Below, piece after piece: positions 10,726 to 60,840 of a stretch of 64,000 nucleotides of DNA (position 1 is its first letter; each line of letters begins with the position of its first letter). Position numbers and translations under genes: made by a program. The stretch covers positions 31,451,141 to 31,515,140 of the forward strand of contig NC_081355.1 in the NCBI RefSeq assembly GCF_030684315.1. Reading direction: 5' to 3'. The DNA is from Stegostoma tigrinum. Lineage: Eukaryota. Under the pieces are notes generated by a model. It worked only from the letters and a program-made list of their open reading frames with translations. It was not told the DNA's origin and ran no database searches.

Positions 10726-11149
10726 AGACTTACAAGTACAACCATCTTCAGCTTCTTCACTGATTGTCATAAGTGAGTCATTATGGTATCTAAGTGGACC
10801 AGAGCATTAGAGGGATTTGGAAAAAGGATACAGTTCAAAATCAAATTATCAAGTCATCAGTGTTTAAGATCATAACATGTCAAAATTTTTCTTTTAGGAT
10901 TTTGGTTGTGCAGTATTGTCCCTGAATTTTCTTCAACACTTTGTGCCACAGTGTTAAAACAATCACACATCAGGAATGGCAGCAAGTAATAAACAGGACA
11001 TATTCAGAATGAGTTGTCATGGCAGAAAATCCCATTATCTAACCCTGTGTGCTGGAGCAATAGCATCTTAATCAGTCAGTATGGTCCCATTAATGGATCA
11101 AATTAATACCTTGAATGCTTTGTCATTTAAAGCTGGAAATGTTGCACGT

Positions 11150-19660: not shown

Positions 19661-19806
19661 GTCAGAAGTCACGCAAACCAGGTTATAATCCAACAGGTTT
19701 ATTTAAAATCACAAACTCTGAGTTTGTGATCTTAAAATAGACCTGTTGGATTATAACTTGGTGTTTGACTTCCGACTTTGTCCACCCCAGTCCAGCATTG
19801 GCATCT
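19661..19806. repeat. ~58-bp inverted repeat with 1-nt centre plus ~30-nt one-sided extension (probable third PLE-like family)
   Basis: gtcagaagtca...ccaggttataatccaacaggtttatttaaaatcacaaactc-t-gagtttgtgatcttaaaatagacctgttggattataacttgg...tgacttccgac, then tttgtccaccccagtccagcattggcatc. Confidence 0.7.
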
Positions 19807-23421: not shown

Positions 23422-24569
23422 GTAAGTACCCATTATCCATCTGCATGTGATTGTGAACTACCAGGAAGCTTTGGAATATTTCTGAAGAGCAGTTAAGAAA
23501 CAATGGAGTTCCAATTATACATTGATACCATTGTTAAGTTGGTGCTTATCCAGTATTGACTTTCCTTAACAGTGGTGTTTATTCTAGAAGTATGGCCCTG
23601 GAGCTAATCTTTGCTTGCATTATAAGCACCTTATATATAGGGATACACATCAGAAGCATACACCTCCTGACCCAACAACCACACTTCTAGTTTGCTTATA
23701 AGTGCACAAGTGAGTTATGCCCATCACATGCAAAATTGAAAGCAACTGATTTCTATCAACAGCTTACGAGCAGCATTTTTTATATTAATCTTGACTAATA
23801 GCATCCCTTGACATACCTGTAAAAAGATTTTGATAAAGAATTTCAGATGGGCTAAATGGAATAGATATACAAAAATTATGTTGTGAGTAGATTTCATTTC
23901 ACCAATTCTATTCCCTTCAATGAACAGCAATCATGCCATGGTGGTAGAAATATAACTGCTATGTTCGTTTTCTTTTTATTCACTCGTGGGATGTTGGCAT
24001 TGATGGCTGTGTAAGCACTTACTGCTCATCCCTAATTGCTCTTGAGAAGGTGATGCTGAGCTGCCGCCTTTAACTGCTTCAGTCCATATACTGTAGGTAG
24101 ATCCACAATGCCATTAGAGAGGAAATTCCAGGATTTTAATCTAGCGATACTGAAAAACGGTGATGTATCTGCTGCCCTCATCCTTGTTCGTGGTTGGGAA
24201 GTTGCTGTCTTAGAATCTTTAGTGAATTCCTGCACTGCGTATTGTAGATGGTGCACGCTGCTACTGAGTGGTGGTGGAGGTGGGAGTGGGTGTTTGTGGA
24301 TGTACTGCCATTCAAGTGGGTTCCATTGTCCTAGATGCTGTCGAGCTTTTTGAATGTTGTTGGAGCTGTAGTCATCCAGGCAAGTAGGAAGTATTCCACC
24401 ACACTTCTGACTTGTGCCTTCTAGATGAAGACAACCTTTTGAGGGGATAGGAAGTGAATTACTTGCAATATTTGTAGACTCTGCCCTGCTCTTGTAACCA
24501 TTGTTTATATGGTGAGTCCAGTTTCTTACTTGTCAGTTTTTAGCCCAGGCCTGGATATTATCCAGGTCT

Positions 24570-25816
24570 GAGATAATGGAAACTGCAGATGCTGGAGAAT
24601 CCAAGATAATTAAAGTGTGAAGCTGGATGAACACAGCAGGCCCAGCAGCATCTCAGGAGCACAAAAGCTGACGTTTCGGGCCTAGACCCTTCATCAGAGA
24701 ATGGGATGGGGAGAGGGAATTGGAATGTAATAGGGAGAGATGGGGAGGCGGACCGAAGATGGAGAGAAAAGAAGATAGGTAGGGAGGGGATAGGTCAGTC
24801 CAGGGAAGATGGACAGATCAAGGAGGCGGGATGAGGTGGTAGGTAGGAAATGGAGGTGCGGCTTGAGGTGGGAGGAAGGGATGGTTGAGAGGAAGAACAG
24901 GTTAGGGAGGCAGAGACAGGCTGGGCTGGTTTTGGGATGCAGTGGGGGAAGGGGAGATTTTGAAGCTGGTGAAGTCCACATTGATACCATTGAGCTGCAG
25001 GGTTCCCAAGCGGAGTATGAGTTGCTGTTCCTGCAACCTTCGGGTGGCATCATTGTGGCACTGCAGGAGACTGTGATGGACATGTCACCTAAAGAATGGG
25101 AAGGGGAGTTGAAATGGTGCACGACTGGGAGGTGCAGTTGTTTATTGCGAACCGAGCGGAGGCTTGGGGACCGCTTTGCAGAACACCTCTGCTCGGTTCG
25201 CAATAAACAACTGCACCTCCCAGTCGTGCACCATTTCAACTCCCCTTCCCATTCTTTAGGTGACATGTCCATCGTGGGCCTCCTGCAGTGCCACAATGAT
25301 GCCACCCGAAGGTTGCAGGAATAGCAACTCATATTCCGCTTGGGAATCCTGCAGCCCAATGGTATCAATGTTGACTTCACCCGCTTCAAAATCTCCCCTT
25401 ACCCCAGTGCATCCCAAAACCAGCCCAGTTCATCCCCTCCCCCACTGCATCCCAAAACCAGCCCAGCCTGTCTCTGCCTCTCTAACCTGTTCTTCCTCTC
25501 ACCCATCCCTTCCTCCCACCCTAAGCCGCACCTCCATTTCCTACCTACTAACCTCATCCCACCTCCTTGACCTGTCCGTCTTCCCTGGACTGGACTGACC
25601 TATCCTCTCCCTACCTCCCCACCTATACTCTCCTCTCCACCTATCCTCTTTTCTCTCCATCTTTGGTCCACCTCTCTCTCTCTCTTCGCCCCTTTATCCC
25701 AGAACCCTCCCCCCATCCCCCTCTCTGATGAAGGGTCTAGGCCCGAAACGTCAGCTTTTGTGCTCCTGAGATGCTGCTTGGCCTGCTGTGTTCATCCAGC
25801 TTCACACTTTATTATC
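24570..25816. mobile_element. Inverted, doubly 5'-truncated PLE insertion (1247 bp)
   Basis: Antisense arm 24570-25162, sense arm 25155-25816; TSD tattatccaggtct at 24556-24569 and 25817-25830; GIY-YIG remnant RRLGDRFAEHL. Confidence 0.92.
25725..25752 (+). ncRNA. Minimal hammerhead ribozyme motif
   Basis: CTGATGA-a-gggt(ctag)gccc-GAAAC-GTC. Confidence 0.7.
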
Positions 25817-27571
25817 TATTATCCAGGTCTTCCTGCATTTGAACATGAACTACTTCAGTATCTGAGGATGTGTGAATTGTGCTGAAATTGTGTAGTTATC
25901 GATGAATATCCCCATTTATAACCTTAACATGGAAGGAACGTCATTGATGAAGCAGCTGAAGGTGGTTGGGCTTAGGAACTCCTGAGGAACTCCTGTAGAG
26001 ATATCTGGGAGCTAAGATGAGTGACCTCCAGTAATCATAACCATCTTGTGTGTCAGGTATGATTCCTGCCAATGGAGAGTTTACCTTGATACTCACTGAT
26101 TCATTTTTGTGAGGGTTCCTTATGCCATACATTTGAATATGGCTATTAACTGTCACTGTCTCCTCACCTCTGAAATTCAGCCTTTTGTGTCCATGTTTGA
26201 TCCAAGGTATAATAAAATCAGGAGCTAGCGGGTCAGTAAGCAGGTTATTGCTGAGCAGATGGTACTTGATCGTACTGCTAATGGTACTTTCCATCACTTT
26301 AATGATTGAGAGTAGGCTGATGGTCTGAGTTGGATTTGTCTTGGCTTTTGTACAGAGGATCTACCTAGATGAGTGTCCACTTTATCAGGTGGATGTCAAT
26401 GTTGTATCTGTACTGGAACAGCCTGGCTAAGGGTGTGGCTAATTCAAGAGCACGTCTTCAGTACTATTGCTGGAATGTCAGGGCCAAACAGCCTTTTTAG
26501 TATCCTGTGCCTCCAACTGTTTCTTGATAACACAAGGAGTGAATTGAATTAGCCGAAGACTGGCATCTGTGATGCTGAGGGACCTTTGGAAAAGACTGAG
26601 ATGGATTATCCACTTGGTATCTCTGGCTGAAAATTGTTGTGAATGCTTGAGCGTTATCTTTTGCACCAATATTCCTCCTCCTCTGTTGCAGATGGGGATA
26701 TGCATGGAGCTGCCTCCTCCAATGAGTTGCTTAATCACAAAATGTGTGGCAGGACTGCAGAGCTCAAATCTGATGTGTCAATTCTGGGATTGATTGGCTC
26801 TAACGTGCTGCTTTTGCTGTTTGTCATCAGTTTGTTACCTCATTTTTCGGTATTCCTGATCCTGTTCCTGGCATGACCTCGTACTCTTCATTGAACCATG
26901 GTTGAGCCTTTGGCTTGATGGTACTGGTAGAGGAGCAGGTATGCTGGGTCATGAGATTGCAGATTGTGTTGGACTAAGGTTCTGCTGCTGCTGATGCCCC
27001 TCTATGCTTCATGGATGCACTTCTTGAGTTGCTGGATTGGTTCAATGTCTGTGACATTTAGCATGATGAAAGTCCCGTGCAATGCAAAATAAATTGCGAT
27101 CAGTGTGAAGGCAGGACTTCATGTCCACAATGACTTTGCGGTGGTAACTCATACTGATACTGTTTTGGACAGATCCAACTGTGACAGGTGGTGAGGATGA
27201 GATCAGTTATGTTTTTTCCCTCTTGTTGGTTCTGTCACCACCTGCAAATCCATTCTAGCAGCAGTATTCTTTAGGACTCGACCATCTCGGTCAATACTCC
27301 TGCTGTGTGTGCCTGTTCGTGGTGGATACTGAAATCCTGTGCCCTTGCCGCACTTTGTGCTTCCTTTGTCTTGTTGGAGGAGTGCTGATCCATCAGCCGG
27401 GAGGTGATAAGCAGCAGGTGGTTTCCTTGTACATATTTGACTTGATGCTTGAGACCAATGTTGGGTGCCAATGTTGAGGACTCCTCCCAGGGCACCTCCC
27501 TCCTGTCTGTATTCCACTGTGCCGTCATATCTGCTGGGCCTGTCTTCTTGATGTGACAGGACGTGACCAGA

Positions 27572-29074: not shown

Positions 29075-30560
29075 GCAAATAGAAGTAGGCCATTTGGCCC
29101 TTTAAGCCTGCTCCATCATTTGTTATGAACATGGCTGATCATCCAACTCAGTGGCCTGTTTCTGTTTTTCCTCCATATTCATTGATAACTTTAGCCCTAA
29201 GTCCTCTTCCCAACTCCTTATTGAAATTATATCATGCTTTCACCTCAACTGCTTTCTGTTGAGGCCGATTCCACAGGCTGGCTGGTGTGTGGATGAAGAA
29301 GTCTCCCTTATTCTCATTCCTCAGTGGTTTATCTGTATCTTGACTGTGACCACTGGTTCTGGATTCCACCACAACCTGGAGCATTGTTCTTGTATCTGTC
29401 TTGTCAAGTTCATTTAGAATCTCATAGCTTTCTATGAGATTCTCCCTCTTTCTTCTGAACTCTAGCTAGTATAATCCTCACTTTTATATCATTAATATGT
29501 GTTGTGAATAGGTAGGATCCTACCATTGATCTTAGTGTTATCCAATAGTTATTGCCTGCCATTTGGAAAAAGGCCCATTTATTCCTCTCTTTTGTTACCA
29601 ATTTGCTGACCAGTTTTCTATCCACTTCAATCCACTACCCCCAGTTCCATGCTCTTTAATTGTACATGCTAATCTTTTTTATGTGGGACTTTGTCAAAAG
29701 CTTTCTAAAGTCCAAATAAACCTCTTCCACTGATTTCCTTGCATCAACTCTACTAATTACATCTCTCAAAGCACTCCAGTAGATTTGTCAAGCATAAATT
29801 CCCTTACATAAATCCTATTCAATTCTGCCACTCTTTTCTAAATGTTTAACTCTTAAAATCTTTTACAATAAGTTCCAGCATTTTCTTCATGATAGACATC
29901 AGGCTGACTGGTTTATAATTGGTTTTTTTCTCTCTACCTCACTTTTTAAATAGAGTGGTTACATTAGCTGCCCTCAAACGTGTAGGAACTGTTTGAGTCT
30001 ACAGAATTGTGGAAGATGACCAGTGATACATCCACAACATCTAGAGCTACTTGCTTATATACTTGGAATGTAGATTGTCAGGCCCTGGGGACTTGCTGGT
30101 CTTCAAATCCATCAAAGCATCATTTTTCAACTCATCCTAATTTGCTTCAGTTGCTCTGAATCTCCAAACCGTGTGTTCCCCAGCATTTCTGGTTTGTTAT
30201 TTGTGTCCTCCTTTGTGAAGATGCAACAAAAGCATATGTGTAGTTGGCAAAAAAAACCCAAAAGAACTGCAGATGCTTGAAATCTGAAATAGGAACAGAA
30301 ATTGCTGGAAAATCTTAGCAGGTCTGGCAGCATCTGTGGAGAGAAGTCAGACCTGAAGAAGGGTCACTGAACCCGAGACGATAACTAATTTCTCTCCACA
30401 GATGCTGTCAGACATGCTGAGATTTTACAGCGATTTCTGTTTTTATATATGCAGATGGTCAGCCATTTCTCGGTTCCACATTATAATTTCTCCTGTTTTT
30501 GACTGAGAGACCTACGTTCATGTCTGTCCATCTTTTTCTCTTCATATACCTATAGCCCGC
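29075..30560 (-). mobile_element. Decayed, internally deleted CR1-like LINE hosting the 30250 hairpin
   Basis: gaagtaggccatttggccctttaagcctgctcc 3' end; gggactttgtcaaaagctttc (reverse of KAFDKVP). Confidence 0.7.
30250..30445. mobile_element. Short inverted PLE-like insertion, older family, decayed hammerhead in loop
   Basis: aacagaaattgctggaaaatcttagcaggtctggcagcatctgtggagagaa pairs with ttctctccacagatgctgtcagacatgctgagattttacagcgatttctgtt; loop ctgaagaagggtcactgaacccgagacgat; left tail. Confidence 0.75.
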
Positions 30561-31500
30561 TGACTGTAAATGTTTCTAACTTGCTCACAATGTTTTCCCT
30601 CCAACGTGCTCCTTGAATGCATAACAGGCTTTCTTGTAAGTTTAAATGCAAAGATAGGATAAGTGATTCTGTTGCACGATGCCCAAAATGTAATCACAAC
30701 AAATGCTCGCTCCTCATCCACCGAGACACATACAAAGGTGGATGGTCTCTAAGGTACGTAACATGCACTTTGACTTTCAGGACTTGAAAAAGAAATCTGT
30801 TATACCTGTTTCTCCAGTATGATTGCCGGAATGCTTGTAGGCCAGAACATTGCCAGTTCACTAAATTAGATGCTGAAAATGTCAGGTGATGAATTTTCAG
30901 TAGTTTGATTTGAAGTAAGAGCAGGAATCTGGTTTTTCCAGCTGAAGATGTGGTTCAGCTCCTTTTTTAAAAAACGATAACCTGCAGGTACAATCAAACA
31001 GCTCCACTTCTGTGCCTGAGTTGACGACTTCTTCGAGGCAAGATCTCTATCTGTGTGTCTGTATCTCTCTCGCTCTCTTGCTTTGGGGTACATAACCCAG
31101 ATTGACATGCCCTGGCCCATCCTTGTAAATTAGTTAGGTAGGTCCAAGTGTTCCCCCTCATAAGCAAGTTTCTATCATGTGACAAAAGTAATGATGTTTT
31201 TCCGTTAACTAAGCATTGAGTGGATTTACCACAAATTGGCAGATGTTTAGTACAATTCATATCTGCTTTTGGTTGTGACTGTTTTATGCCATTCTTTGTT
31301 AGATGCAAGTTTGCTCGTATCAAGTCTGAAATGCTTATTTTATTTGAGTTTTGGCAATGAGGCAACAGTAGCTGTCAAATTTAAAGTATTTAATTTGAAC
31401 AGAGATAATGGGAACTGCAGATGCTGGAGATTCCAAGATAATAAAATGTGAGGCTGGATGAACACAGCAGGCCAAGCAGCATCTCAGGAGCACAAAAGCT

Positions 31501-31528
31501 GACGTTTCGGGCCTAGACCCTTCATCAG
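31501..31528 (-). ncRNA. Minimal hammerhead ribozyme motif (left arm)
   Basis: Reverse complement of ctgatgaagggtctaggcccgaaacgtc. Confidence 0.7.
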
Positions 31529-31752
31529 AGAGGGGGATGGGGGGAGGGAACTGGAATAAATAGGGAGAGAGGGGGAGGCGGACCGAAGATGGAGAGCAAA
31601 GAAGATAGGTGGAGAGGGTGTAGGTGGGGAGGTAGGGAGGGGATAGGTCAGTCCAGGGAAGACGGACAGGTCAAGGAGGTGGGATGAGGTTAGTAGGTAG
31701 CTGGGGGTGCGGCTGGGGGTGGGAGGAAGGGATGGGTGAGAGGAAGAACCGG

Positions 31753-33412
31753 TTAGGGAGGCAGAGACAGGTTGGACTGGTTTTGGGATGCAGTGGGTGG
31801 GGGGGAAGAGCTGGGCTGGTTGTGTGGTGCAGTGGGGGGAGGGGATGAACTGGGCTGGTTTAGGGATGCAGTGGGGGAAGGGGAGATTTTGAAACTGGTG
31901 AAGTCCACATTGATACCATATGGCTGCAGGGTTCCCAGGCGGAATATGAGTTGCTGTTCCTGCAACCTTCGGGTGGCATCATTGTGGCAGTGCAGGAGGC
32001 CCATGATGGACATGTCATCAAGAGAATGGGAGGGGGAGTGGAAATGGTTTGCGACTGGGAGGTGCAGTTGTTTGTTGCGAACTGAGCGGAGGTGTTCTGC
32101 AAAGCGGTCCCCAAGCCTCCGCTTGGTTTCCCCAATGTAGAGAAAGCCGCACCGGGTACAGTGGATGCAGTATACCACATTGGCAGATGTGCAGGTGAAC
32201 CTCTGCTTAATGTGGAATGTCATCTTGGGGCCTGGGATGGGGGTGAGGGAGGAGGTGTGGGGACAAGTGTAGCATTTCCTGCGGTTGCAGGGGAAGGTGC
32301 CGGGTGTGGTGGGGTTGGAGGGCAGTGTGGAGCGAACAAGGGAGTCACGGAGAGAGTGGTCTCTCCGGAAAGCAGACAGGGGTGGGGATGGAAAAATGTC
32401 TTGGGTGGTGGGGTCGGATTGTAAATGGCGGAAGTGTCGGAGGATAATGCGTTGTATCCGGAGGTTGGTAGGGTGGTGTGTGAGAACGAGGGGGATCCTC
32501 TTGGGGCGGTTGTGGCGGGGGCGGGGTGTGAGGAATGTGTCGCGGGAAATGCGGGAGACGCGGTCAAGGGCGTTCTCAATCACCGTGGGGGGGAAGTTGC
32601 GGTCCTTAAAGAACTTGGACATCTGGGATGTGCGGGAGTGGAATGTCTTATCGTGGGAGCAGATGCGGCGGAGGCGGAGGAATTGGGAATAGGGGATGGA
32701 GTTTTTGCAGGAGGGTGGGTGGGAGGAGGTGTATTCTAGGTAGCTGTGGGAGTCGGTGGGCTTGAAATGGACATCAGTTACAAGCTGGTTGCCTGAGATG
32801 GAGACTGAGAGGTCCAGGAAGGTGAGGGATGTGCTGGAGATGGCCCAGGTGAACTGAAGGTTGGGGTGGAAGGTGTTGGTGAAGTGGATGAACTGTTCGA
32901 GCTCCTCTGGGGAGCAAGAGGCGGCGCCGATACAGTCATCAATGTACCGGAGGAAGAGGTGGGGTTTGGGGCCTGTGTAGGTGCGGAAGATGGACTGTTC
33001 CACGTAACCTACAAAGAGGCAGGCATAGCTGGGGCCCATGCGGGTGCCCATGGCCACCCCCTTAGTCTGTAGGAAGTGGGAGGAGTCAAAAGAGAAGTTG
33101 TTGAGTGTGAGGACGAGTTCCGCTAGGCGGATGAGAGTGTCGGTGGAGGGGGCCTGGTCGGGCCTGCGGGACAGGAAGAAGCGGAGGGCCTTGAGGCCAT
33201 CTCCATGCGGAATGCAGGTGTACAGGGACTGGACGTCCATGGTGAATATGAGGTGTTGGGGGCCAGGGAATTGGAAGTCCTGGAGGAGGTGGAGGGCGTG
33301 GGTGGTGTCACGGACATAGGTGGGGAGTTCCTGGACCAAAGGGGAGAAAATGGAGTCCAGATAGGTGGAGATGAGTTCGGTGGGGCAGGAGCAGGCTGAG
33401 ACGATGGGTCGA
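31753..33412 (-). CDS. 5'-truncated PLE reverse transcriptase + GIY-YIG endonuclease (left arm)
   Basis: RPIVS, TMDVQSLYT, GVAMGTRMGPSYA, RYIDD, CNRRKCYTC linker, VVYCIHCTRCGFLYIGET; no stops; no native start. Confidence 0.9.
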
Positions 33413-33413
33413 A

Positions 33414-35165
33414 CCCACACCCACAGCCTCCAACCTCATTGTTCCCCAACCCCGCACAGCCCGTTTCTATCTCCTTCCCAAAATCCACAAACCTGCCTGC
33501 CCTGGTCGACCCATCGTCTCAGCCTGCTCCTGCCCCACCGAACTCATCTCCACCTATCTGGACTCCATTTTCTCCCCTTTGGTCCAGGAACTCCCCACCT
33601 ATGTCCGTGACACCACCCACGCCCTCCACCTCCTCCAGGACTTCCAATTCCCTGGCCCCCAACACCTCATATTCACCATGGACGTCCAGTCCCTGTACAC
33701 CTGCATTCCGCATGGAGATGGCCTCAAGGCCCTCCGCTTCTTCCTGTCCCGCAGGCCCGACCAGGCCCCCTCCACCGACACTCTCATCCGCCTAGCGGAA
33801 CTCGTCCTCACACTCAACAACTTCTCTTTTGACTCCTCCCACTTCCTACAGACTAAGGGGGTGGCCATGGGCACCCGCATGGGCCCCAGCTATGCCTGCC
33901 TCTTTGTAGGTTACGTGGAACAGTCCATCTTCCGCACCTACACAGGCCCCAAACCCCACCTCTTCCTCCGGTACATTGATGACTGTATCGGCGCCGCCTC
34001 TTGCTCCCCAGAGGAGCTCGAACAGTTCATCCACTTCACCAACACCTTCCACCCCAACCTTCAGTTCACCTGGGCCATCTCCAGCACATCCCTCACCTTC
34101 CTGGACCTCTCAGTCTCCATCTCAGGCAACCAGCTTGTAACTGATGTCCATTTCAAGCCCACCGACTCCCACAGCTACCTAGAATACACCTCCTCCCACC
34201 CACCCTCCTGCAAAAACTCCATCCCCTATTCCCAATTCCTCCGCCTCCGCCGCATCTGCTCCCACGATAAGACATTCCACTCCCGCACATCCCAGATGTC
34301 CAAGTTCTTTAAGGACCGCAACTTCCCCCCCACGGTGATTGAGAACGCCCTTGACCGCGTCTCCCGCATTTCCCGCGACACATTCCTCACACCCCGCCCC
34401 CGCCACAACCGCCCCAAGAGGATCCCCCTCGTTCTCACACACCACCCTACCAACCTCCGGATACAACGCATTATCCTCCGACACTTCCGCCATTTACAAT
34501 CCGACCCCACCACCCAAGACATTTTTCCATCCCCACCCCTGTCTGCTTTCCGGAGAGACCACTCTCTCCGTGACTCCCTTGTTCGCTCCACACTGCCCTC
34601 CAACCCCACCACACCCGGCACCTTCCCCTGCAACCGCAGGAAATGCTACACTTGTCCCCACACCTCCTCCCTCACCCCCATCCCAGGCCCCAAGATGACA
34701 TTCCACATTAAGCAGAGGTTCACCTGCACATCTGCCAATGTGGTATACTGCATCCACTGTACCCGGTGCGGCTTTCTCTACATTGGGGAAACCAAGCGGA
34801 GGCTTGGGGACCGCTTTGCAGAACACCTCCGCTCAGTTCGCAACAAACAACTGCACCTCCCAGTCGCAAACCATTTCCACTCCCCCTCCCATTCTCTTGA
34901 TGACATGTCCATCATGGGCCTCCTGCACTGCCACAATGATGCCACCCGAAGGTTGCAGGAACAGCAACTCATATTCCGCCTGGGAACCCTGCAGCCATAT
35001 GGTATCAATGTGGACTTCACCAGTTTCAAAATCTCCCCTTCCCCCACTGCATCCCTAAACCAGCCCAGTTCATCCCCTCCCCCCACTGCACCACACAACC
35101 AGCCCAGCTCTTCCCCCCCACCCACTGCATCCCAAAACCAGTCCAACCTGTCTCTGCCTCCCTAA
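33414..35165 (+). CDS. 5'-truncated PLE reverse transcriptase + GIY-YIG endonuclease (right arm including spacer)
   Basis: Spacer continues the frame upstream of the listed ORF: PTASNLIVPQPRTARFYLLPKIHKPACPGRPIVS; remainder identical to left arm. Confidence 0.9.
   Translation, partial: PTPTASNLIVPQPRTARFYLLPKIHKPACPGRPIVSACSCPTELISTYLDSIFSPLVQELPTYVRDTTHALHLLQDFQFPGPQHLIFTMDVQSLYTCIPHGDGLKALRFFLSRRPDQAPSTDTLIRLAELVLTLNNFSFDSSHFLQTKGVAMGTRMGPSYACLFVGYVEQSIFRTYTGPKPHLFLRYIDDCIGAASCSPEELEQFIHFTNTFHPNLQFTWAISSTSLTFLDLSVSISGNQLVTDVHFKPTDSHSYLEYTSSHPPSCKNSIPYSQFLRLRRICSHDKTFHSRTSQMSKFFKDRNFPPTVIENALDRVSRISRDTFLTPRPRHNRPKRIPLVLTHHPTNLRIQRIILRHFRHLQSDPTTQDIFPSPPLSAFRRDHSLRDSLVRSTLPSNPTTPGTFPCNRRKCYTCPHTSSLTPIPGPKMTFHIKQRFTCTSANVVYCIHCTRCGFLYIGETKRRLGDRFAEHLRSVRNKQLHLPVANHFHSPSHSLDDMSIMGLLHCHNDATRRLQEQQLIFRLGTLQPYGINVDFTSFKISPSPTASLNQPSSSPPPTAPHNQPSSSPPPTASQNQSNLSLPP
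35042..35150 (+). repeat. 39-nt tandem repeat x~3 at the PLE ORF C-terminus
   Basis: ccccactgcatccctaaaccagcccagttcatcccctcc; PTASLNQPSSSPP/PTAPHNQPSSSPP/PTASQNQSNL. Confidence 0.85.
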
Positions 35166-35389
35166 CCGGTTCTTCCTCTCACCCATCCCTTCCTCCCACC
35201 CCCAGCCGCACCCCCAGCTACCTACTAACCTCATCCCACCTCCTTGACCTGTCCGTCTTCCCTGGACTGACCTATCCCCTCCCTACCTCCCCACCTACAC
35301 CCTCTCCACCTATCTTCTTTGCTCTCCATCTTCGGTCCGCCTCCCCCTCTCTCCCTATTTATTCCAGTTCCCTCCCCCCATCCCCCTCT

Positions 35390-35417
35390 CTGATGAAGGG
35401 TCTAGGCCCGAAACGTC
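35390..35417 (+). ncRNA. Minimal hammerhead ribozyme motif (right arm)
   Basis: CTGATGA 35390-35396, stem II gggt/gccc, GAAAC 35410-35414, palindromic ACGT, predicted cleavage after GTC (35417). Confidence 0.72.
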
Positions 35418-35732
35418 AGCTTTTGTGCTCCTGAGATGCTGCTTGGCCTGCTGTGTTCATCCAGCCTCACATTTTATTATCTATTTAATTTGAACATTTG
35501 TTTGTTGTGAAAATATTGAAGACAGAGAATAAAGGCAGTTTGATTGGCATTTATAACCTCCAATATTTGTTAAACCATTATTTGTGAGATTTTAAATTGC
35601 TTGGAGTAAGAAGTTTCAATTTGAGGTGGCCATTTTGATACTATGTACTCCTAACAATTAAAATTTGAAGTGTTTTTAGTTTTGTTGAATCCTGTGCTCG
35701 GTCCATTCTCATTTACTTTTCTTCTGACCTAG

Positions 35733-35884
35733 ATGAGGAGCAACTTTAGACATTACTTCCTTTCTTCCAGGATGATGAAAACTGTCTATGATATTATTAC
35801 TTGGGTTTCTACTCAACTGGCCCTCTGCTATATAGTAACACCTTTCCTCCTCCTGGGTGCAGAACCAACAATCAAATTCTACAA
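35733..35884 (+). CDS. MBOAT1: MBOAT1-like exon, 152 nt, MRSNFRHYFLSSRMMKTVYDIITWVSTQLALCYIVTPFLLLGAEPTIKFY(K)
   Basis: cctag| acceptor, |gtaagt donor; RHYFLSS...YD..TW..TQLA conserved. Confidence 0.95.
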
Positions 35885-36532
35885 GTAAGTAGACCGATTG
35901 TCTGATTTTATTTATTTGTCCCCAAGCAACAAAACTAAGCATTGAAGTTAGTCAGAAGTTGTACCTGCAAACATCATCTTCACATCGGGAGAATTTTTCC
36001 GTCTGCAGCATTCTCCAGAAGAAGTGTACGCAGTTGTAAATTTAGTTGCTAAAATAGACAGCCATTATTCATTGCTCCTTGAGTAGTATGATGGTTCAGT
36101 TTGGTGCATAACAGAAGTGAAACCTAGATAGGTAATCGAGTAACAGTTTGTCTTAGTATTGTTAATTGTTTTCGGGGTGCAGTTGCTCTTGGTAGGTGGT
36201 GGTGAGTTACTATAGTGATGGGGCTAAGTCCTTTAGGAGTTTCACTGCCACCAAACCTTGCTGGCCATAGTCTGATATCATGTGGGGAAGGATACTCACT
36301 TGAAATCTTTGGCAAGAGATGTACTTAATCATTATGAAAAGTAAACATTCATTGCATGCATTTTAATAGTTGGTTACATTACATCTCGGATGTATGATTG
36401 CTGCTTGTGAGATATCAGACTAAACTTAAGGATAAATTCCCTTTATTCCTACTACTACTACTGACATTATCGTACTGCATTGACAGCAACATAGAATTGG
36501 TTATCTCCTCCCAGAATTCCTTTGTAGCCTTA

Positions 36533-36722
36533 TAAAAGCAAAATACTGTGGATGCTAGAAATCTGGAACAGAAACAGAAAATACTAGAGAAACAACAGGT
36601 CTGGCAGCAACTGTGAAAAGAATAACAGAGAAATTCAGCTAAGTTACAAAATGTTAACTGTTTCTCACTTCACACATACTGCCAGAACTGCTGAGTTTCT
36701 CCAGCACTTTGTTTGTATTTCT
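36533..36722. mobile_element. Short inverted PLE-like insertion, older family
   Basis: Left tail aaaagcaaaatactgtggatgctagaaatctg; caggtctggcagcaactgtgaa pairs with ttcacacatactgccagaactgctgagtttctccag. Confidence 0.65.
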
Positions 36723-41689: not shown

Positions 41690-44130
41690 AAATGTATTAA
41701 AAAGTAGAGATTAATTGGTATGGTCTTATACTCATTGAGATGTGGTTACCAGGGGATCAAAGCTGGGAACAAACTCTTCAGGGGTATAGAACTTTTCAAA
41801 AGGACAAGTAGAAAGGGAAGAGTGGTGGGTTATCGATGTTCGAATGAGATGGAGCAAGTATGATAGCAAGAATTAATCTTGAATTGAATGATGCAAGATA
41901 CGTTGGTTAGTAGTAAGAAGTAATGAGGAAAAAGACACTGGTGGGAATCTATAAGCTACCTTTAAAAATATCTGTTCTGTAGTACTGTGACCATAAAGTA
42001 GAATTTGTCATTCAGCTGGAGACTGAGAAACTGTCAGAAGCAACTGTGCGGAACTTAAATAAAAATAATTACATAGGAACGAGGGCAGTGTTAGCTGGAG
42101 TAGACTGTGAAAGGAGCTTAGCAGTAAATATGATTGAGGAACAATGGCAACAAAAATATATCCTAGTGAAGAGTTGGATGTAGGAAGGAGATAAACTGAT
42201 GTAGTTAACCAGTTAAGTTAGGAGTGGCAATAATTTGAAAGAAAAAAAAATACCATAAGGCAAAGATTAGTGGTTAGTCAGAGGATTGGAAAATTTTGAA
42301 AGCCAAGACAAAAGCAAACAAAAAAAACTATTGGGGAAATTAAGAGCTTCTTTCAGTATGTAAGAAGGAAAGGAGAGGGCACAGGGAACATAGTCTTCTT
42401 AGATAACGAGGCTGGGGAAATAAGGATCGGAAACCAGAAATTGGGCAGTGGAGGTGAACTGCATCAGTCTTTAGGTTAGAGCGCACTAATAACATTTCAA
42501 CACAATTGCATAATCGAGCTGGGAGAGTAAACACAACAAACTGTCACCAGAGACACACAACTTGTGAAACTAGTACTAAACATTGATAAGTCCGCTGGAC
42601 CAGATGGGATGCATCCTTAGATTTTAACAGAAGTAGTTCCAGAGATAGTATGTGCACTTAAATTCTGGAAAAGTCCCAAAGGATTGGAAATCTGGCCATG
42701 TAACACATTTATTCAAAGAGGGAAGGAGACAAAACAGGTAACAAGAAATGTCTATTATCATCTATTGTAAAGGATGCAATAGCAGATCATTTCGAAATGC
42801 ATAACATAATCAAGTGTAGTCAGCATCACTTCATGAACAATAAATCAATTTTATTAGAATTCTTTGAGGAGGTAACAAGTAGGATGGATAAAGAAGAAGC
42901 AGTGAATGTAATATACTTGGATTTCCAAAGGAACCCCACACACTGCTGTTTAATAAGATCAGAGATCATAGGGTTGGGTGCACTATTATCATGGATAAAG
43001 GATTACCTAACTAATACAAACAAGGAGGAGACATAAAGGCAGGCATTTTCAGGATGGCGACTTGTAACTAATAGAGTGCCTCAGGCATCAGTGCTAGAGT
43101 TACAATTATTTACATTCTATTTTGATGATTTGGACGAGGAAAGTGAATGTGCTATCGCTAGATTTGCGGATGATGCAAAAATAGACAGGAAGATAAGCAG
43201 TGAGAATACCACAAGGAGGCTACAACAGGGTGTTGATAGATTTATGAGTGGGCAAAATCTTGACACATGGAGTGTAATGTGGGAAAATGAGGTTATGTAT
43301 TTTGGCAGGAAGAATAGAAGACATAAATATTATTTAAATAGAGAAAGATGATGGAAAGCCGCAGCACAGAGAACTTTACAGGATCTCATGCATGAATCAT
43401 AAAAAAACTAGCATCTAAATTCAGCAGGTAATTGAGAACGCAGATTAAATGTTGGCCTTTATTTCAAGGGGAATAGAGGATAAAAATGGGGAGATCTTCT
43501 TAAAACTGTACAAGGTGCTAATCAGACCATACATGGAACATCATGAACAGTTTTGGTCCCCTGATCTGAAGAAGGGTCTAGGGCTGAAACCGTCAGCTTT
43601 CCTGCTCCTACGATGCTGCTTGGCCTGCTGTGTTCATCCAACTCTACACCTTGTTAACTAAGAAAAAATAAACTGGCATTGGAGGCAGTCCAGACAAAGT
43701 TCACTGGGTTGATCCTGGTTATGGAGAGATTGTTTTATGAGGAGATGTTAAGTAGATTGGGCCTCTACTCGTTGTTTCCTCTCATTCTTCTAAACCCCAT
43801 TCTTAGGGAGCTTGACAGGGTAGATGCAAAAAGTTGTTTCCCCATATGGTGCCCATCTAGGACCAGAAGTCGTCATCTCAATAGAAAGTATTGCCCATTT
43901 CAGACAGATGAGAATTTTTTTCTCTCCAAGGATAGTGAATCTGTACAGTTATTTTCTGCAGAGGGATGCTGAGGTTAAGTCATTAAGTATATTCTGGGCT
44001 GAGACAGATTTCTCATCAGGGATGAAGCAGGATAGTGGAGTAGAGGATTATCGGAACTGATGTGTTCTCATTGAATGGTAGAACAGACTCAGTGGTCCAA
44101 GTGACCTACTTTTTGCTTCTTTATCCCTCA
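41690..44130 (+). mobile_element. Decayed CR1 LINE ORF2
   Basis: LLEFFEEVTSRMDKEEAVNVIYLDFQ, FADDAKI, LKLYKVLIRP..E...QFWSP. Confidence 0.85.
43565..43639 (+). mobile_element. 75-bp PLE 3'-end fragment inside CR1
   Basis: tctgaagaagggtctagggctgaaaccgtcagctttcctgctcct...gctgtgttcatccaactctacaccttgttaact, homologous to 35389-35482. Confidence 0.8.
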
Positions 44131-50460: not shown

Positions 50461-51304
50461 CATGTGCAGAGCTTCAGCTCGGATGCACAAACCAATTGCT
50501 GTGTATTTCTCTCTTAAATAATGACAAATTTTCAGAATAACATTTCCATGTTTCTACTTTTGAATTTCTTTAATGCCTCAAGCCCATAATCATCAAGAGA
50601 CATTGACATGGTATTAATGCTACTGGAAATAATAACCCAGGAGAAGATTATAATTGCCTGTGTGATGCAGAGAGCTCCATGTTATGCCAATCTAAAAAGA
50701 TTCACTGTCAAGTGCTGTGCTGTTCCCCCAGAACCACCAGCCAGGGTAGCCAGATCCAACATACTACATGACTTCCTGTTATATGTAAAAACCTCCACTC
50801 CGCTGCAGCTAGTGGGCCTTGTTGGTTTGGCTGGATAACACCAGCATGTTGTGGCGAGAGATCCCAGATATACTGTGTGTGTCCTGGCCAGATGCAGACT
50901 CATTGTTGACTTGACATCCATCAAGTCGAGAATGGTAGGCAAAGTCAAGGTGTATGGACTGGGTACTTTGGAGTGTCCTGCGAGCAGACCCTGTGGGGAA
51001 GGTATGTGTTCCTCTTTCATCTGGGTCCTTGTCATCTTGTGGGGAAAATGCACTTTGACTGAAGTCAACGTGTCTCATCCTCCAACTAGAATGAAGTGCA
51101 AGATTGCGCCCATATTTGGCAAATACTCTGTAGAAACAGGCAAATGCACACATTGTGGAGCTAGCGTGTTAGAAATGGCATTTAACCTTCAATCCAGTCT
51201 CCCAAGTATCTCGGACAACTATGTCTGTTGTTCCTCTGTCAGTTGGTGCATTTTAACAAAGTTGTTATGGAAAGGGAAAGGAGCAGTTACCAGGGGAAGA
51301 TATT

Positions 51305-53195
51305 TAACTGGGGTAAAGGAAAGAAACTATGACGCTATCAGTCAGGAGTTGGGAAGTACAGATTGGGAACAATTGTTCCACAGAAAGGGCACAGCAGACA
51401 TGTGGAGGCTGTTTAAGCAGCAATTGTTGCAAGTGATATATAAATTTGTTCCTCTGAGACAGGTAAGAAGGGGTAAGATTAAGGAGCCTTGGATGACTGG
51501 TACAGAGGTGCTTCTTGTCAAAAAGAAAAAGGCAGCGTATGTAAGGGGGAGGAAGCAAGAGTCTAGCACAGCTTTAGAGGATTACAGGCTTGCTCGGAAG
51601 GAGCTCAAAAGTGGACTGAGGGCCAGGAGGGGGCACGAGAAAGGCTTGGCAGAAGGATTAGGGAGAGGCATTTTACTCAAACGTGAGGAATAAGAGAATG
51701 ATCAGGGAGAAGGTTGGGCCGATCAAGGATAGTGTAGGGAACTTGTGCGTGAAGTCTGAGCAGATAAGGGAAGCCCTAAATGAGTTTTTGCTTCAGTTTT
51801 CACTAAGGAAAGGGACCTTATTGTGAATGAGAACTTTGAGGAGCAGGAAAACAGGCTTGAACAGATCAAGATTGAGGAAGTTGATGTGCTGGAAATTTTG
51901 GCAAACATTAAGATTGATAAGTCCCCAGGGCCAGACCAGATTTATGCTAGGTTGCTCTGGGAAGCGAGAAAGGAGGTTGCTAAGCTGCTGGTGAAGGTCT
52001 TTGCTTCCTCACACTGCACGGGAGTCGTACAGGAAGATTGGTGGGAGGCAAATGTTGTTCCTCTTTTCAAGAAAGGGAATAGGGAAATCCCTGGAAATTA
52101 CAGACCAGTCAGTCTTCTGTCTGTGGTCAGCAAGGTTTTGGCAAGAATTCTGAGGGATAGGATTTATGACTATTTGGAAAAGCATAGCGTGATTAAAGGG
52201 AGTCAGCATGGCTTTGTGAGGGGCAGCAAATCTTATTGAGTTCTTTGAGGAAGTCATGAGACAGTTTGACGAGGGTCGAGCAGTGGATGTGGTGTACATG
52301 GACTTCAGCAAGGCATTTGATAAGGTTCCCCACGGCAGGCTCATTCATAAAGTCAGGAGGATTGGGATACAGGGTGATTTGGCTGTCTGGATTCAGAATT
52401 GGTTGGCTGACAGGAAGCAGAGAGTGGTTGTAGATGGTAAGTATTCTACCTGGAGGTCAGTGCTGAGTGGTGTCCCGCAGGGCTCTGTTCTTGAGCCTCT
52501 GCTCTTTGTAGTTTTTATAAATGACTTGGATGAGGAGATTGAGGGGTGGGTTAGTATGTTTGCTGATGACACAAAAAGGTTGGAGGTGCCGTTGATTGTA
52601 TCAAGGGCTATTGCAGGCTTCAGCGAGACATTGACAGAATGCAGAGCTGGGCTGAGAAATGGCAGATGGAGTTCAACCTGGATAAATGTGAATTGATGCA
52701 TTTTGGCAGGTCGAACTTAAATGCTGAACATAGGATTAAAGGCAGGATTCTCGGCAGTGTGGAGGAACAGCGGGATCTTGGTGTTCAAGTGCATAGCTCC
52801 TTCAAAGTTGCCACCCAAGTGGATAAGGTTGTTAAGAAAGCTTATGGTGTTTTGGCTTTCATTAACAGGGGGATCGAGTTTAAGAGCCGGGAGGTTATGC
52901 TGCAGCTCTACAAAACCGTGGTGAGACCACACTTGGAATATTGTGTCCAGTTCTGGTCGCCCTATTATAGGAAAGATGTGGAGGCTTTGGAGATGGAATA
53001 GTTTGCCAGTGGTAGTCATGGAAGCGGAGTCATTAGTGACATTTAAGCGACTGCTGGACATGCACATGAACAGCAGTGAATTGAGGGGAATGTAGGTTAG
53101 GTTATTTTATTTTTGGATTAGGAATATTCCACGGCACAACATCGTGGGCCGAAGGGCCTGTACTGTGCTGTACTTTTCTATGTTCTATGTTATGT
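51305..53195 (+). mobile_element. CR1 (HER1-like) LINE ORF2, frameshifted and internally deleted
   Basis: [54 protein letters not shown]; ttctatgttctatgtt tail. Confidence 0.92.
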
Positions 53196-54751: not shown

Positions 54752-57084
54752 CTGAGAAATGTCCTGAATGAGCAGGAAGCATGGATGACGGGAAGAGTAA
54801 GTTGTACAGGGAAACCGTGATCAGTATTGGTGGGGGAGAGTTATTGAGGGAAGGCGCTGCATGCGATACTGAAAGTGGTAGAACATGAGCCTTATTTGGA
54901 AGTGAGTGTAGTAACGGAATTACAGTTAGTGTAAGGTAGCAGAGAGAAGATGGTGGCACTTAATCCTGCAGAGTGCAGAAGATCATTTACTTTGCATTGC
55001 TTAGTGTTCTTCCAGATGGTGGCTACTTCATTGACACGGATGGAAACATCAGACCAGGCTGGCAGCATTTAATACTGTGACTTTGTCTAGTGCTTCTGGA
55101 AAAATCCTTCTATAGAGGAGCACAATATAGTTCATTGTGCATTGAAGTTCAGCAATAATAGTTCAATATAGTTCAGCAGTGCATTAGAGGGGAGTGCATA
55201 TTTAGTCAGGAGCACAGAGGAGTCTTGTGAGAGAGAACTTGCTAGAGATTTCCGAGAGGAACCCTCCATTCAACTAATCAAAATTTGACATGCACATTTT
55301 TGGAAAAATTTCAACCCCTCATTTTTCCTTGCCTGGTTACTAAGCTTAATGTCATTGCCATAACTGTATAACCATAGAAAGGTTACATCATGTTTAAAAT
55401 ACCTCTGCAGGCTTTTTTTTGTTTTTTTTTCTAATTGACCTGTTCAGAGATTATTTCACATCTTAAAAGCAAGTGAGACTTGAACCCAGGCCTCCTGGTC
55501 CATTGGTAGGGACACTGCCACTTCACCAAAAGTCAATTCAGCCCATCATAATTCTGCTGGCTGAACAAACTAGCCACCTGTTCTAATCCACCTAACAGCA
55601 TCTGGTTCGTACCCTTGCAGGTTAGTGATCTTCACGTTTGCACATGCAGGTTCCTCTTAAATGAGTTGATGGTTTCTGCCTTAACCATCAAACTGGACAG
55701 CAAATTCCAAACACCAAGCACCATCTGGGTGAAAAAGGCTTTCCTTATTTTTCTTCTTTCAATCACCTGAATCATCTGTGAATCCTGATAATTGATCTCC
55801 ATTGTAAGTTCCTCATTCAGCTAAAAATACGATTTACAGAAAGAGGAAGGATAGTGGAAGACTTGCTGTGGTGTGAGCCAATTTATAATTCCCTAGTCCT
55901 TCTTTATTTGGGAGGAAGAGTCACAGACTGACCAGATGATGGTTGTCTGTATCAATTTGCATCCAGCCTGCGTTTGGCAAGTGCACACATGTATCTTGGT
56001 ATAGGAGCCACTAAATGGTTGATCAGGACTTTCTCTTCTGAAAACCCAGCAAAACTGAGACTGATTTTAGTCCTGAAGCTTCCTTAGCCAAGATCAATTA
56101 CTTTTTGTACTCTGCAGATTTAAAACTGATGTGAAGATAAAATAATTTTGCGCTAATGCTAACTTTACAATGAATTTGGTGTAGGGGTTGAAACTGACTG
56201 CAGTAGCAAGTAAGTCTGCTTTGACCTTGGTTTCTCCATCTACTACATTCTCCAACTCAGTCAAGGCTAAATTCACAGGATAACTGCAGTGTTAGTGTAA
56301 AGCAAGATAACCTCGCATCTGAGTTTACTGTTGTAATGTGAATGCACACTAACTCAAAGCCCAAATGGGCTCCAACTCTCAATGTTTGCAGATTTATCCC
56401 TACCTTCACAATACTAGCTCCAAGAGGTGGAAATTCTTCCATGTTATTCACTGACTTCAGCATGATGTTAACAACTTCTTTCAGTGCACCCAGGTGAATC
56501 AAAACAAACATAGCAACACACAGGATTGGGAAAGACCATGCAGTCCAGCACCTGATCTCATTGATAATGAAATCCCATTGTGCCATTAGTACCTTTTAAG
56601 CAAAGCTATTGTCAGCTACTCTATGTAAGCTGTCTTGAATTTGCTGAAATTTATTATCTTTAGCTTTTTCTGTAATTACATTACCTACACTTGTCACTCT
56701 CTATATAAAATGCTTAGATCTAAACCACCCTTTTTATCTTGTACTTTTCTAAATGTTTCATTATTCATGTTTCTAAAATAAAAATCAAGGACATTTCTTT
56801 TTTGTGAAACATCCAACATTTTTCCTTGTAGAAAACCATGCTGACTATCCCAAATCAATTTTTGCCTCTCTAAATGTCCATAAAACCTTCTCTTTTAAAA
56901 TCACCACCAACAATTTACACAACCAAAGTCAGCCTCATGGGTCTTTAGTTCCCTGGTTTCTCCTAACAGCGTTCCTTAAACAAAGGTACAGCATTGGAGG
57001 GTGGCTAATCATCAGACTCCTCACCCATACGTGCAGATATTGCAAATATTTCTGCAATGGGTCTCTCAGAAATATTTGCATCAT

Positions 57085-58527: not shown

Positions 58528-59113
58528 TTCGAGAGCCCAAATGCCCCTTGGGGAGTTTTTTATAACTCACTGGAGGTAATGTACTAGAAATCGAGCACCA
58601 TGATTCCCACAGTTGTCACAAAAGTTAAATATGTTAAAAATTACACAAAGTTCCCAAATTCACCTGAGTTTTAGACCCAGATTGATCAAAATCATGGACC
58701 AGGTTTCTACACTAATCAAGAATCACAAGAATCGTTACATGTAATTAGACTCTAGCTACAGGTAAATGGTTATAAACTGTTTGGCATATAACATTACTAA
58801 TTAAAACTCTAATCCTCTGACACACACTCCCCTTTTATACATATATAGACAGACAAAGAGACAAGGTAAAATAGGTTATGAACAAAGGGGAAAAGCTGGA
58901 AAGATAGTTTTTTCCTAGATTCTGTTGTTGAGATGATTCTTATGACTTTTCTGCTTGCCAGCATATTGCTTCAGTCATCTTTCTCCAGACTCTCAGGTTG
59001 TTAAGATTCACAGATGGCTGGTTCACTCATTAAAAAAATTCTCTGACTCTTTAGTTCAGTCAGTTTACAACAACTGTTGCAGAAAAGATGATAAATGGGT
59101 TTATTTCAGGTTT

Positions 59114-60022
59114 AGAGATAATGGGAACTGCAGATGCTGGCAAATCCAATACAACCAAGTGTGGGGCTGGATGAACACAGCAGGCCAAGCAGCATCTTAG
59201 GAGCACAAAAGCTGACGTTTTGGGCCTAGACCCTTCTTCAGAGAGGAGAGGGTTCAGAAATAAATAGGGAGAGGCGTACTGAAGATAGAAGAGAAGATAG
59301 GTTCAGAGGAGAGTATGAGTGGGGAGGTAGGGAAGGGATAGGTCAGCCCGGGGAGGATGGAGAGGTCAAGGGGGCGGGATGAATTTAGTAGGTAGGAAAT
59401 GGAGGTGCGGCTTGAAGTGGGAGGAGGGGATAGGTGAGAGGAAGAACAGGTTAGGCAGGCGGGGACGAGCTGGGCTGGTTTTGGGATGCAGTGGGGGGAG
59501 ATTTTGAAGCTGGTGAAGTCCACATTGATACCATTGGGCTGCAGGGTTCCCGATGCCACCCGTAGGTTGCAGGAACAGCAACTCGTATTCCGCTTGGGAA
59601 CCCTGCAGCCCAATGGTATCAATGTGGATTTCACCAGCTTCAAAATCTCCTCTCCCTCCACTGCATCCCAAAACCGGTCCAGCTCGTCCCCACCCCCCTA
59701 ACCTGTTCTTCCTCTCACCTATCCCCTCCACCCACCTCAAGCCGCACCTCCATTTCCTACCTACTAAACTCATCCCGCCCCCTTGACCTGTCTGTCCTCC
59801 CTGGGCTGACCTATCCCCTCCCTACCTCCCCACCCATACTCTCTTCTGCACCTATCTTCTCTATTTATCTTCAGTCCACCTCCCCCTCTCTCCCTATTTA
59901 TTTCAGAATCCTTTCCCCATCCCCCTTTTCTGAAGGAAGGTCTAGGCCTGAATCATCAGCTTTGGTGCTCCTAAGATTGTTGCTTGGCCTGCTGTGTTCA
60001 TCCAGCCCCACAATTTGGTATC
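59114..60022. mobile_element. Inverted, doubly truncated PLE insertion (909 bp)
   Basis: Antisense arm 59114-59551, sense arm 59552-60022; TSD ttatttcaggttt at 59101-59113 and 60023-60035. Confidence 0.92.
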
Positions 60023-60499
60023 TTATTTCAGGTTTTAGTGAGTTTTGACCATAGAGAATGTAGAGACCACTCCTGAGCTGGGGAGAAAATTCAGCAGATC
60101 TCTTTCTCAATAACTTGTCCCCAGCTTTAAGCAGTTCATTTACCTAAGAGCCAATCATACAATTGTGGCAGGTAAAAAGATCTCTGTCATTGATAACTGG
60201 TCACTTGTCCATAAATCAAACAGCCTCACAAGAACAAAAAGAAAGACAACCTTTTATTGCCAGAAGAGGCTGCATCTGTACACTTCCTTGCCTCCAAGTC
60301 ACCAACTCAAACTTTAATTACTTCTTATTAAAACAGTTGTTTAATGATGCTTGCCTTGAATGTCAGGTTACTTATTTTTCAAAATGACAGACACCTCCAG
60401 AATTGGGGTTAAAACAGCTTTCTAATTTGAATCCAATTTTTGAAATGACACAGCAAAAGTACATGGTCTTTACAAGATGTAAATGATCGAACATGTTAT

Positions 60500-60840
60500 G
60501 TTGAGGAAAAGTTGATAGGAGGTTCTCCTGGTACAATGGCCAATGTTTATCTGTTAAACAACTTCTCTAAAACAAATGATCTGGTTAGTATCTTACTGCT
60601 GTATAGAGGATGCAATAAGCAGAATTAATTGCTGTTCATTCCTTATGTGAAGTCCCTACAACAAAATAAGAAGTATCAGTGATAATGGGAACTACAGATG
60701 CTGGAGAATCCAAGATAATAAAATGTGAGGCTGGATGAACACAGCAGGCCCAGCTGTGTTCATCCAGCCTCACATTTTATTATCTCGCATAAGAAGTAGT
60801 TAGTTTGTATGAAATGCTAGGATATCCTGAAAGTCGCAAT
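60500..60840 (+). mobile_element. DeuSINE-like relic hosting the 60676 hairpin
   Basis: ggttctcctggtacaatggccaatgtttatctgttaaacaacttctctaaaacaaatgatctggtt resembles the Deu domain as recalled. Confidence 0.5.
60676..60788. mobile_element. 113-bp minimal inverted PLE insertion
   Basis: Perfect 33-bp arms 60713-60745 and 60753-60785, loop aggccca, left tail; TSD ataagaagta at 60666-60675 and 60789-60798. Confidence 0.9.

Follow-up and report, generated by a model that had tools for sequence, protein, structure and literature searches.

The DNA analyzed here is a stretch of 64,000 nt from Stegostoma tigrinum, referred to as the window. At 31387-35496 it carries a palindromic insert (locus B) in an intron of MBOAT1 (lysophospholipid acyltransferase 1), which lies on the + strand, and 236 bp separate the insert from the next exon (Table 1). 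Eight exons of MBOAT1 were mapped within the window. Look-ups against Pfam, PDB sequences and the Atlas (matches below 0.9 in the latter were disregarded) did not identify the exon downstream of the insert, and it was the protein search that identified MBOAT1.

Table 1. Features of the palindromic insert, its host exon and the other palindromic loci of the same family (window coordinates; TSD, target site duplication)
Feature	Position	Strand	Remarks
Older locus A, same family	24556..25830	.	TSD 14, tail on the left, turn with 8-nt microhomology and a 23-nt loop
Left TSD copy, 15 bp	31387..31401	+	exact match to 35482-35496
34-bp tail, outermost 3' extension of the element, left arm only	31402..31435	-	
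Left (tailed) arm, 5'-truncated element copy, antisense to MBOAT1	31436..33412	-	
Putative minimal hammerhead-type motif, left arm	31501..31528	-	pattern scan
Open RT/Cys linker/GIY-YIG frame of left arm, starting inside RT	31753..33412	-	
Turn point, 5-bp stem and 3-nt loop over the junction	33405..33417	.	
93-bp spacer, 5' element sequence of right arm	33413..33505	+	
Open frame of right arm, 583 codons	33414..35165	+	
Right (tail-less) arm, 5'-truncated element copy, sense to MBOAT1	33506..35482	+	
Putative minimal hammerhead-type motif, right arm	35390..35417	+	
Right TSD copy	35482..35496	+	first base common to arm end
Next MBOAT1 exon	35733..35885	+	100% identical to zebra-shark and whale-shark proteins
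Older locus C	59101..60035	.	TSD 13, tail left, 44-nt spacer from tail-less arm, blunt turn
Mini locus D	60666..60798	.	TSD about 10, tail on the left, loop of 7 nt derived from tailed arm

A previous reading of the sequence only had described the insert as a perfect palindrome of 2 x 1977 bp with a 93-bp spacer and an exact 15-bp TSD, and each of these points was reproduced. Alignment of the two arms gave 1977 complementary pairs out of 1977 in one unbroken run with 0 mismatches, and the mirror sum of 66918 was the best among 200 sums tested. The TSD is an exact direct repeat, and the first T of its right copy is also the last base of the right arm. As a chance control, at least 13 nt were found to be common to 4 of 20,000 random pairs of 50-nt windows. 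The insert is not fully symmetric: the 34-bp tail occurs at the left arm only, between that arm and the left TSD, and has no partner at the right arm. The sequence-only reading had missed this one-sided tail, as well as the hammerhead motif in each arm and the location in an MBOAT1 intron. The spacer is extra 5' element sequence; it aligns to relatives and continues the ORF of the right arm in frame, and the inverted copy nearly matches the direct copy in length (1977 versus 2070 bp). A stem of at least 5 bp, as seen over the junction here, occurred in 489 of 50,000 random junctions. At the turn point, the initial 5-6 bases of the spacer may have a non-native origin.

The arms contain mirrored frames with the same translation (33375-35165 on the + strand and 33435-31753 on the - strand), and the motifs reported for them earlier were located as follows in the right arm: YIDD at 33972, a CX4CxxC Cys linker at 34629-34655, and a GIY-YIG nuclease with CCHH, whose core with CxxC and YIG lies at 34746-34787. 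Pfam matches to RVT_1 (E 2e-5) and GIY-YIG (E 0.002) were both under the curated cut-offs. In the protein search the top matches came from zebra shark (94%), whale shark (88%) and bamboo shark (78%), followed by many unnamed or invertebrate proteins at 47-59%, and 2,851 of the 8,000 scored candidate proteins passed an E value of 1e-20. Two host proteins, annotated as a divergent kinase in stingray (P0017) and as XIAP in a snail (P0105), match the element over 78-88% of its length, which probably reflects element sequence absorbed into gene models. The ORF's C-terminus consists of three in-frame 39-bp units (35034-35150, mirrored at 31768-31884). The number of these units varies by copy, with three here, one and two in the arms of locus A, and one in locus C.

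The single ORF places the RT before a C-terminal GIY-YIG nuclease, as in endonuclease-bearing Penelope-like elements, and the 34-bp tail, the inverted truncated copy and the 15-bp TSD are likewise those of Penelope-like elements (tail of 30-40 bp, variable TSD). The Naiad/Chlamys clade was rejected, the nuclease being C-terminal and not N-terminal. Penelope/Poseidon and Hydra are excluded because a CX2-5CxxC linker lies between RT and nuclease, and the long linker favors Neptune over Nematis. Counted by eye, 23 residues separate CxxC from the next conserved Cys here, compared with 25 in the Neptune rows (n=2) and 7-9 in the Nematis rows (n=3) displayed in Fig. S2 of PMC8557442; the RT3-RT4 stretch also resembles, by eye, the DreriNep1 row of that source. 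Motifs and linker spacing support a candidate assignment to the Neptune type, as had been proposed, a clade that is paraphyletic in the phylogeny given in PMC8557442. In four full-length relatives (889-924 residues), 352-381 residues including a DKG motif precede the position at which the present frame starts. DKG is absent from this truncated copy and present in 7 of 9 aligned relatives, the other two being equally truncated. Since about 350-380 N-terminal residues including DKG are missing, the copy cannot encode the whole protein, and the comparison with the full-length relatives confirms the previous view of a non-autonomous copy without its N-terminus. No upstream repeat or promoter is kept.

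The minimal hammerhead-type motif found once in each arm by its core boxes fits the description of such motifs in the text of PMC4209133, and we regard it as a putative hammerhead in the terminal repeat on the basis of this pattern. A search of Rfam (E up to 5) returned no hammerhead match and just two chance matches to lncRNAs, and the fold of the 3' end plus tail was no better than that of shuffled sequences (z 0.62). In many contigs, the ends of the family recur at 31400-31404 and 31433-31438, which are the two ends of the tail.

Three other palindromic loci of the family were found in the window. Loci A, C and D all have the order TSD, tail, antisense arm, sense arm, TSD, and a one-sided tail is thus present at 4/4 palindromic loci of the family in the window, each with a TSD of 10-15 bp; a family fragment at 43557-43660 is single. 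Arm identity is 92.1% at locus A and 90.3% at locus C. The arms of locus C are nearer to each other than to locus A or to the present insert (85.5-87.4%), while those of locus A, which carry 23 and 20 private differences and differ in the number of 39-bp units, are no more identical to each other than to the insert at 31387-35496. A second family, older and very abundant, has the same tail-plus-hammerhead end and forms fold-backs at 30253-30446 and 36532-36721, in which the tail is on the left and the spacer comes from the tail-less arm, with no clear TSDs.

Long perfect inverted repeats are normally unstable, and the palindrome had been considered surprising. This surprise was overstated, since the layout is the published norm and similar short-spacer palindromes in the window last to about 8-10% arm divergence, with arms of at most 600 bp. 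The older palindromes in the window, with arms of up to about 600 bp and gaps of 23-44 nt, persist. Given these older loci with the same layout, the palindrome is neither odd nor an artefact.

The comparison was extended to relatives at 80 metagenome loci, which share 33-68% identity. These form a biased sample, in which a long RT match was required and whose short-read contigs cannot hold long perfect palindromes. An inverted repeat or opposite-strand match was present at 42 of the 80 loci, and none of the 80 showed a long near-perfect palindrome, as expected of short-read contigs. Twelve loci were examined by hand and six of these distant relatives were searched for a TSD, which was detected in four (16, 13, 14 and 9 bp); in all four the tail is one-sided and the arms differ by 986-1842 nt. 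By eye, the overlap of the tail-less end with the TSD is 4-8 nt in these relatives, compared with 1-2 nt in the shark loci. The tail-less arm extends further 5' at 5/6 window loci and at 6/8 TSD-bounded loci, the latter not being significant (p about 0.29, by hand). A lax tally gave 11/13 (p 0.022); it takes in two second-family loci without clear TSD, L028 (no TSD), as well as L016 and L071, whose sense arm is interrupted where the contig stops. Outside both tallies are L024, L031, L044, L049 and L067 (sense tail, no inverted partner found), as well as L041 and L045.

Several observations bear on the age of the insert. With 0 differences over 1977 positions, the 95% upper bound of arm divergence is 0.15%, in keeping with the very recent insertion suggested by the sequence-only reading. 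The CpG observed/expected ratio is 0.53 in the arm versus 0.23 in the flanks; over the last 660 bp it is 0.33, not above that of older copies. Words of the right flank were present at 85-88% in 4 of 24 listed runs, which come from two samples of one study. The contigs of four runs were compared with 29800-33530. X1 and X2 each contain a 2074-nt contig that matches 30392-31401 at 1010/1010 positions, ends its match at the last base of the TSD and continues with 1064 letters unlike the stretch. If the 1064 letters are the right flank, the contig would end at 36560, inside the next repeat, where such contigs break. In contigs of a related organism (X5 and X6), 432 and 39 letters beyond 31395 are also unlike the stretch. 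We infer an empty allele in both the X1 and X2 samples and an empty orthologous site in the relative. X1 and X2 belong to one study, and one sample is possibly the source of the assembly. Among the contigs listed, none runs across the filled left or central junction; contigs drop rare variants. These data support a very recent insertion, and the polymorphism previously raised as a possibility is probable, the insertion probably still segregating. In X1, 69,380 of 516,985 contigs were at least 99% alike, a count that takes both repeat families together and is not a copy number.

Our main reading, to which we assign a probability of about 0.95, is that the locus represents one very recent Neptune-type insertion in a carpet-shark MBOAT1 intron, made in trans by the protein of a full-length copy located elsewhere and probably segregating. 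Terminal inverted repeats of a DNA transposon were rejected, the arms being coding retroelement sequence with a one-sided tail, and two independent insertions were rejected, a single TSD bounding both copies.

As to how the insertion was made, we give roughly even odds to a route in which both strands were primed at two start sites and two long cDNAs were joined end to end. The GIY-YIG nuclease would nick both strands of an AT-rich site, with nicks about 15 nt apart, and each 3'-OH would prime reverse transcription on element RNA, with the tailed arm starting at an outer site and the tail-less arm at an inner site 34 nt upstream. For the order TSD, tail, two arms and TSD, the simplest account is priming of one nick at the outer site and of the other at the inner site. 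Both cDNAs would reach about 2 kb with their ends close together, plausibly through two enzymes acting as one dimer; host end-joining would then link the cDNA 3' ends, and fill-in would create the TSD. The anatomy and its recurrence are observed at the loci themselves, and the empty allele is observed indirectly. Extension from cuts in both strands, and a tail defined by two start sites, would apply here by analogy with in vitro results from another clade: for the anole Poseidon element, PMC11167929 (Frangieh 2024) reports cutting as well as extension of the two strands, a preference for ATT as cut motif and a tail that is the stretch bounded by two RT start sites, and predicts a dimer. ATT occurs within the first five bases of the TSDs of loci A, B and C. 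Beyond this analogy, we infer that both sites served opposite strands in a single event, that the cDNA lengths were coupled and that joining followed.

What favors the joining of two cDNAs is the combination of the kilobase gaps in relatives, the blunt turn of locus C, the lack of fold-back homology at the present locus (by eye, the end of the cDNA lacks such homology to the site as a simple fold-back requires) and comparable two-primer products of LINE-1 described in PMC11702581. In particular, two separate cDNAs are simpler than a loop because the arms of the relatives differ by 986-1842 nt. The one-sided tails at TSD-bounded loci of the family and of the relatives, the unequal numbers of 39-bp units in the arms of locus A and the inferred empty allele also speak for this route. 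Against this route stand the short gaps at all six shark fold-backs (7-93 nt, the sixth being degenerate). A toy model of independent stopping at 2 kb yields gaps of at most 100 nt in about 1% of cases, and coupling must therefore be assumed if two cDNAs were joined. Moreover, the in vitro system is Poseidon and not Neptune, and no difference in start site between its strands was found in PMC11167929. A stricter version, in which the RT subunits of the dimer start at two sites on opposite strands and advance in step, so that the overshoot of the tail-less arm is about one tail length, seems unlikely to us. By eye, overshoot and tail length are 31 versus 34 nt at locus A, 44 versus 35 at locus C, and about 40 versus about 43 at the 30253 locus, that is, within about 10 nt of each other at three shark loci; the fit is less close here (88-93 versus 34), at locus D (-9 versus 34) and in the relatives (1-1.8 kb).

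The short gaps are better explained by copy-back, a tentative second candidate that we consider somewhat less probable. Here both strands would also be primed, but one cDNA, usually that from the inner site, would be long; its 3' end would fold back and copy itself, and the new sense strand would anneal to a short tailed stub. Such a fold would account for short gaps at the six shark loci regardless of arm length, and it agrees with the longer 5' reach of the tail-less arm at most window loci. The absence of differences between the arms suits it at least as well as it suits two cDNAs. Locus A even offers a ready 8-bp stem with a 23-nt loop (8 nt were reached by 12 of 50,000 random junctions), although this microhomology is compatible with both models. 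However, copy-back fits poorly with the blunt turn at locus C, with the present locus, which has no suitable homology, and with the gaps of about 1-1.8 kb in relatives. The arm-specific number of repeat units at locus A also speaks against it, though this difference possibly arose later than the insertion.

For rotifer elements, Arkhipova and colleagues proposed self-priming on an antisense template, either ahead of integration or in the course of it; as the source of the insert this appears improbable. In that scheme the nuclease resolves the intermediate and leaves the tail. The rotifer data of PMC3846280 do include palindromes at inverted junctions, with head-to-head as the most frequent layout, and the junction studied here has its 5-bp stem. 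Self-priming alone, however, gives no account of one arm ending at each of two fixed sites, and the later in vitro data in PMC11167929 place both ends at RT starts on sense RNA.

It is still less probable that the insert is real but that the identity of its arms is technical or secondary, owing to assembly polishing or gene conversion. Short-read contigs collapse such repeats; yet youth alone suffices to explain the identity, both frames are open, the flank agrees at 1010/1010 positions with an apparently empty haplotype, and the arms of the older loci diverged freely (23 and 20 private differences at locus A). Finally, that the entire structure is a fold-back read or assembly artefact is hardly credible and was rejected, for despite the apparently empty allele in both samples and the lack of a contig across the filled junctions among those listed, a fold-back read would mirror the flank, whereas the two flanks are unlike each other here, the insert is enclosed by a direct 15-bp TSD, and its one-sided tail stops at the natural boundaries of the family, likewise at three diverged loci.

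Element type and layout are already in print, and the locus is no new kind of system; what is notable about the insert is its length, its perfection and its intronic position. PMC8557442 and PMC3846280 describe inverted truncated copies with a one-sided tail of 30-40 bp, head-to-head, as the usual arrangement. Compared with the Neptune elements described by Craig et al. 2021 (PMC8557442), the inverted copy here is nearly as long as the direct one and identical to it, and the insertion lies in unique AT-rich sequence, not in a microsatellite. Pen2a_Av of Adineta vaga (Arkhipova et al. 2013, PMC3846280) is similar in being head-to-head, with one of its inverted repeats tailed and a palindrome at the junction, and it has a 9-10 bp TSD and a 31-bp tail, for which antisense self-priming was invoked; in the copies described there, what is inverted is a terminal repeat of about 180-220 bp, next to a full-length ORF, whereas here two 2-kb truncated fragments face each other. 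PAc, the Poseidon element of Anolis carolinensis (PMC11167929), resembles the present element in its tail between two RT start sites, its ATT preference and a hammerhead upstream of the starts; it differs in belonging to another clade and having no Cys linker, and the account given in that source does not model head-to-head products. In LINE-1 twin priming (PMC11702581), a second RT acts on the reciprocal target end and the cDNAs are end-joined with little microhomology; insertions from two templates in opposite orientation keep TSDs of 12-18 bp. There, cDNAs of adjacent RNA parts yield an inversion, whereas here the same 2 kb, with fixed start sites, yields a palindrome. Our search, most subscription literature lying outside it, found no paper on shark palindromes and none tying two start sites to opposite arms, and passages from the retrozyme preprint 10.64898/2026.07.22.740005 held nothing further for this case.

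The wider question here is the integration route of Penelope-like elements, that is, the origin of the tail and of the inverted copies. Sharks have very many young copies, in which the distributions of spacer lengths and arm variants could separate two-cDNA joining from copy-back with no bench experiment. With both alleles present, the exact cut sites could be read and the lifetime of a 2-kb perfect palindrome measured. Disturbed splicing, or editing of the hairpin, could likewise be looked for with this 2-kb hairpin 236 bp ahead of an MBOAT1 exon. If synthesis in step does occur in sharks, head-to-head palindromes would be a direct read-out of the reaction, and the segregating 2-kb intronic copy would be a test case for it, including the cost of perfect dsRNA in a pre-mRNA. 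When palindromes of this kind turn up in shark assemblies, they should not be dismissed as fold-back reads.

Some further observations were made on the repeats of the window. In all 6 fold-backs, which lie within introns of MBOAT1 and downstream of it, the tail is on the left and the tailed copy runs antisense to MBOAT1 (p 0.03, one window only); this shared orientation could result from the direction of transcription, the direction of replication or chance. Single ends of the second family were detected at 11148, 12376, 15174, 21373, 49962 and 62728 on the + strand and at 2216 and 47053 on the - strand. A 460-bp fold-back at 56833-57289 (80% identical, almost no spacer, no tail or clear TSD) lies beside CR1-like RT fragments, and 19661-19776 is an imperfect palindrome of another repeat (116 bp, 84%). 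Judging from their motifs, 50839-53001 and 57253-58114 are presumably decayed CR1-like LINE fragments. On opposite strands, contig joints between 31400-31404 and 31433-31438 (with 14-43 contigs for each joint in each run) bring a tailed end beside a tail-less end, tail to tail, and possibly represent adjacent or nested insertions. In addition, many contig joints from 30344-30345 to 31400-31404 and from 30294 to 31436 link the ends of this family to the end of the second family, and these fixed joints hint at a preferred insertion site within the second-family element.
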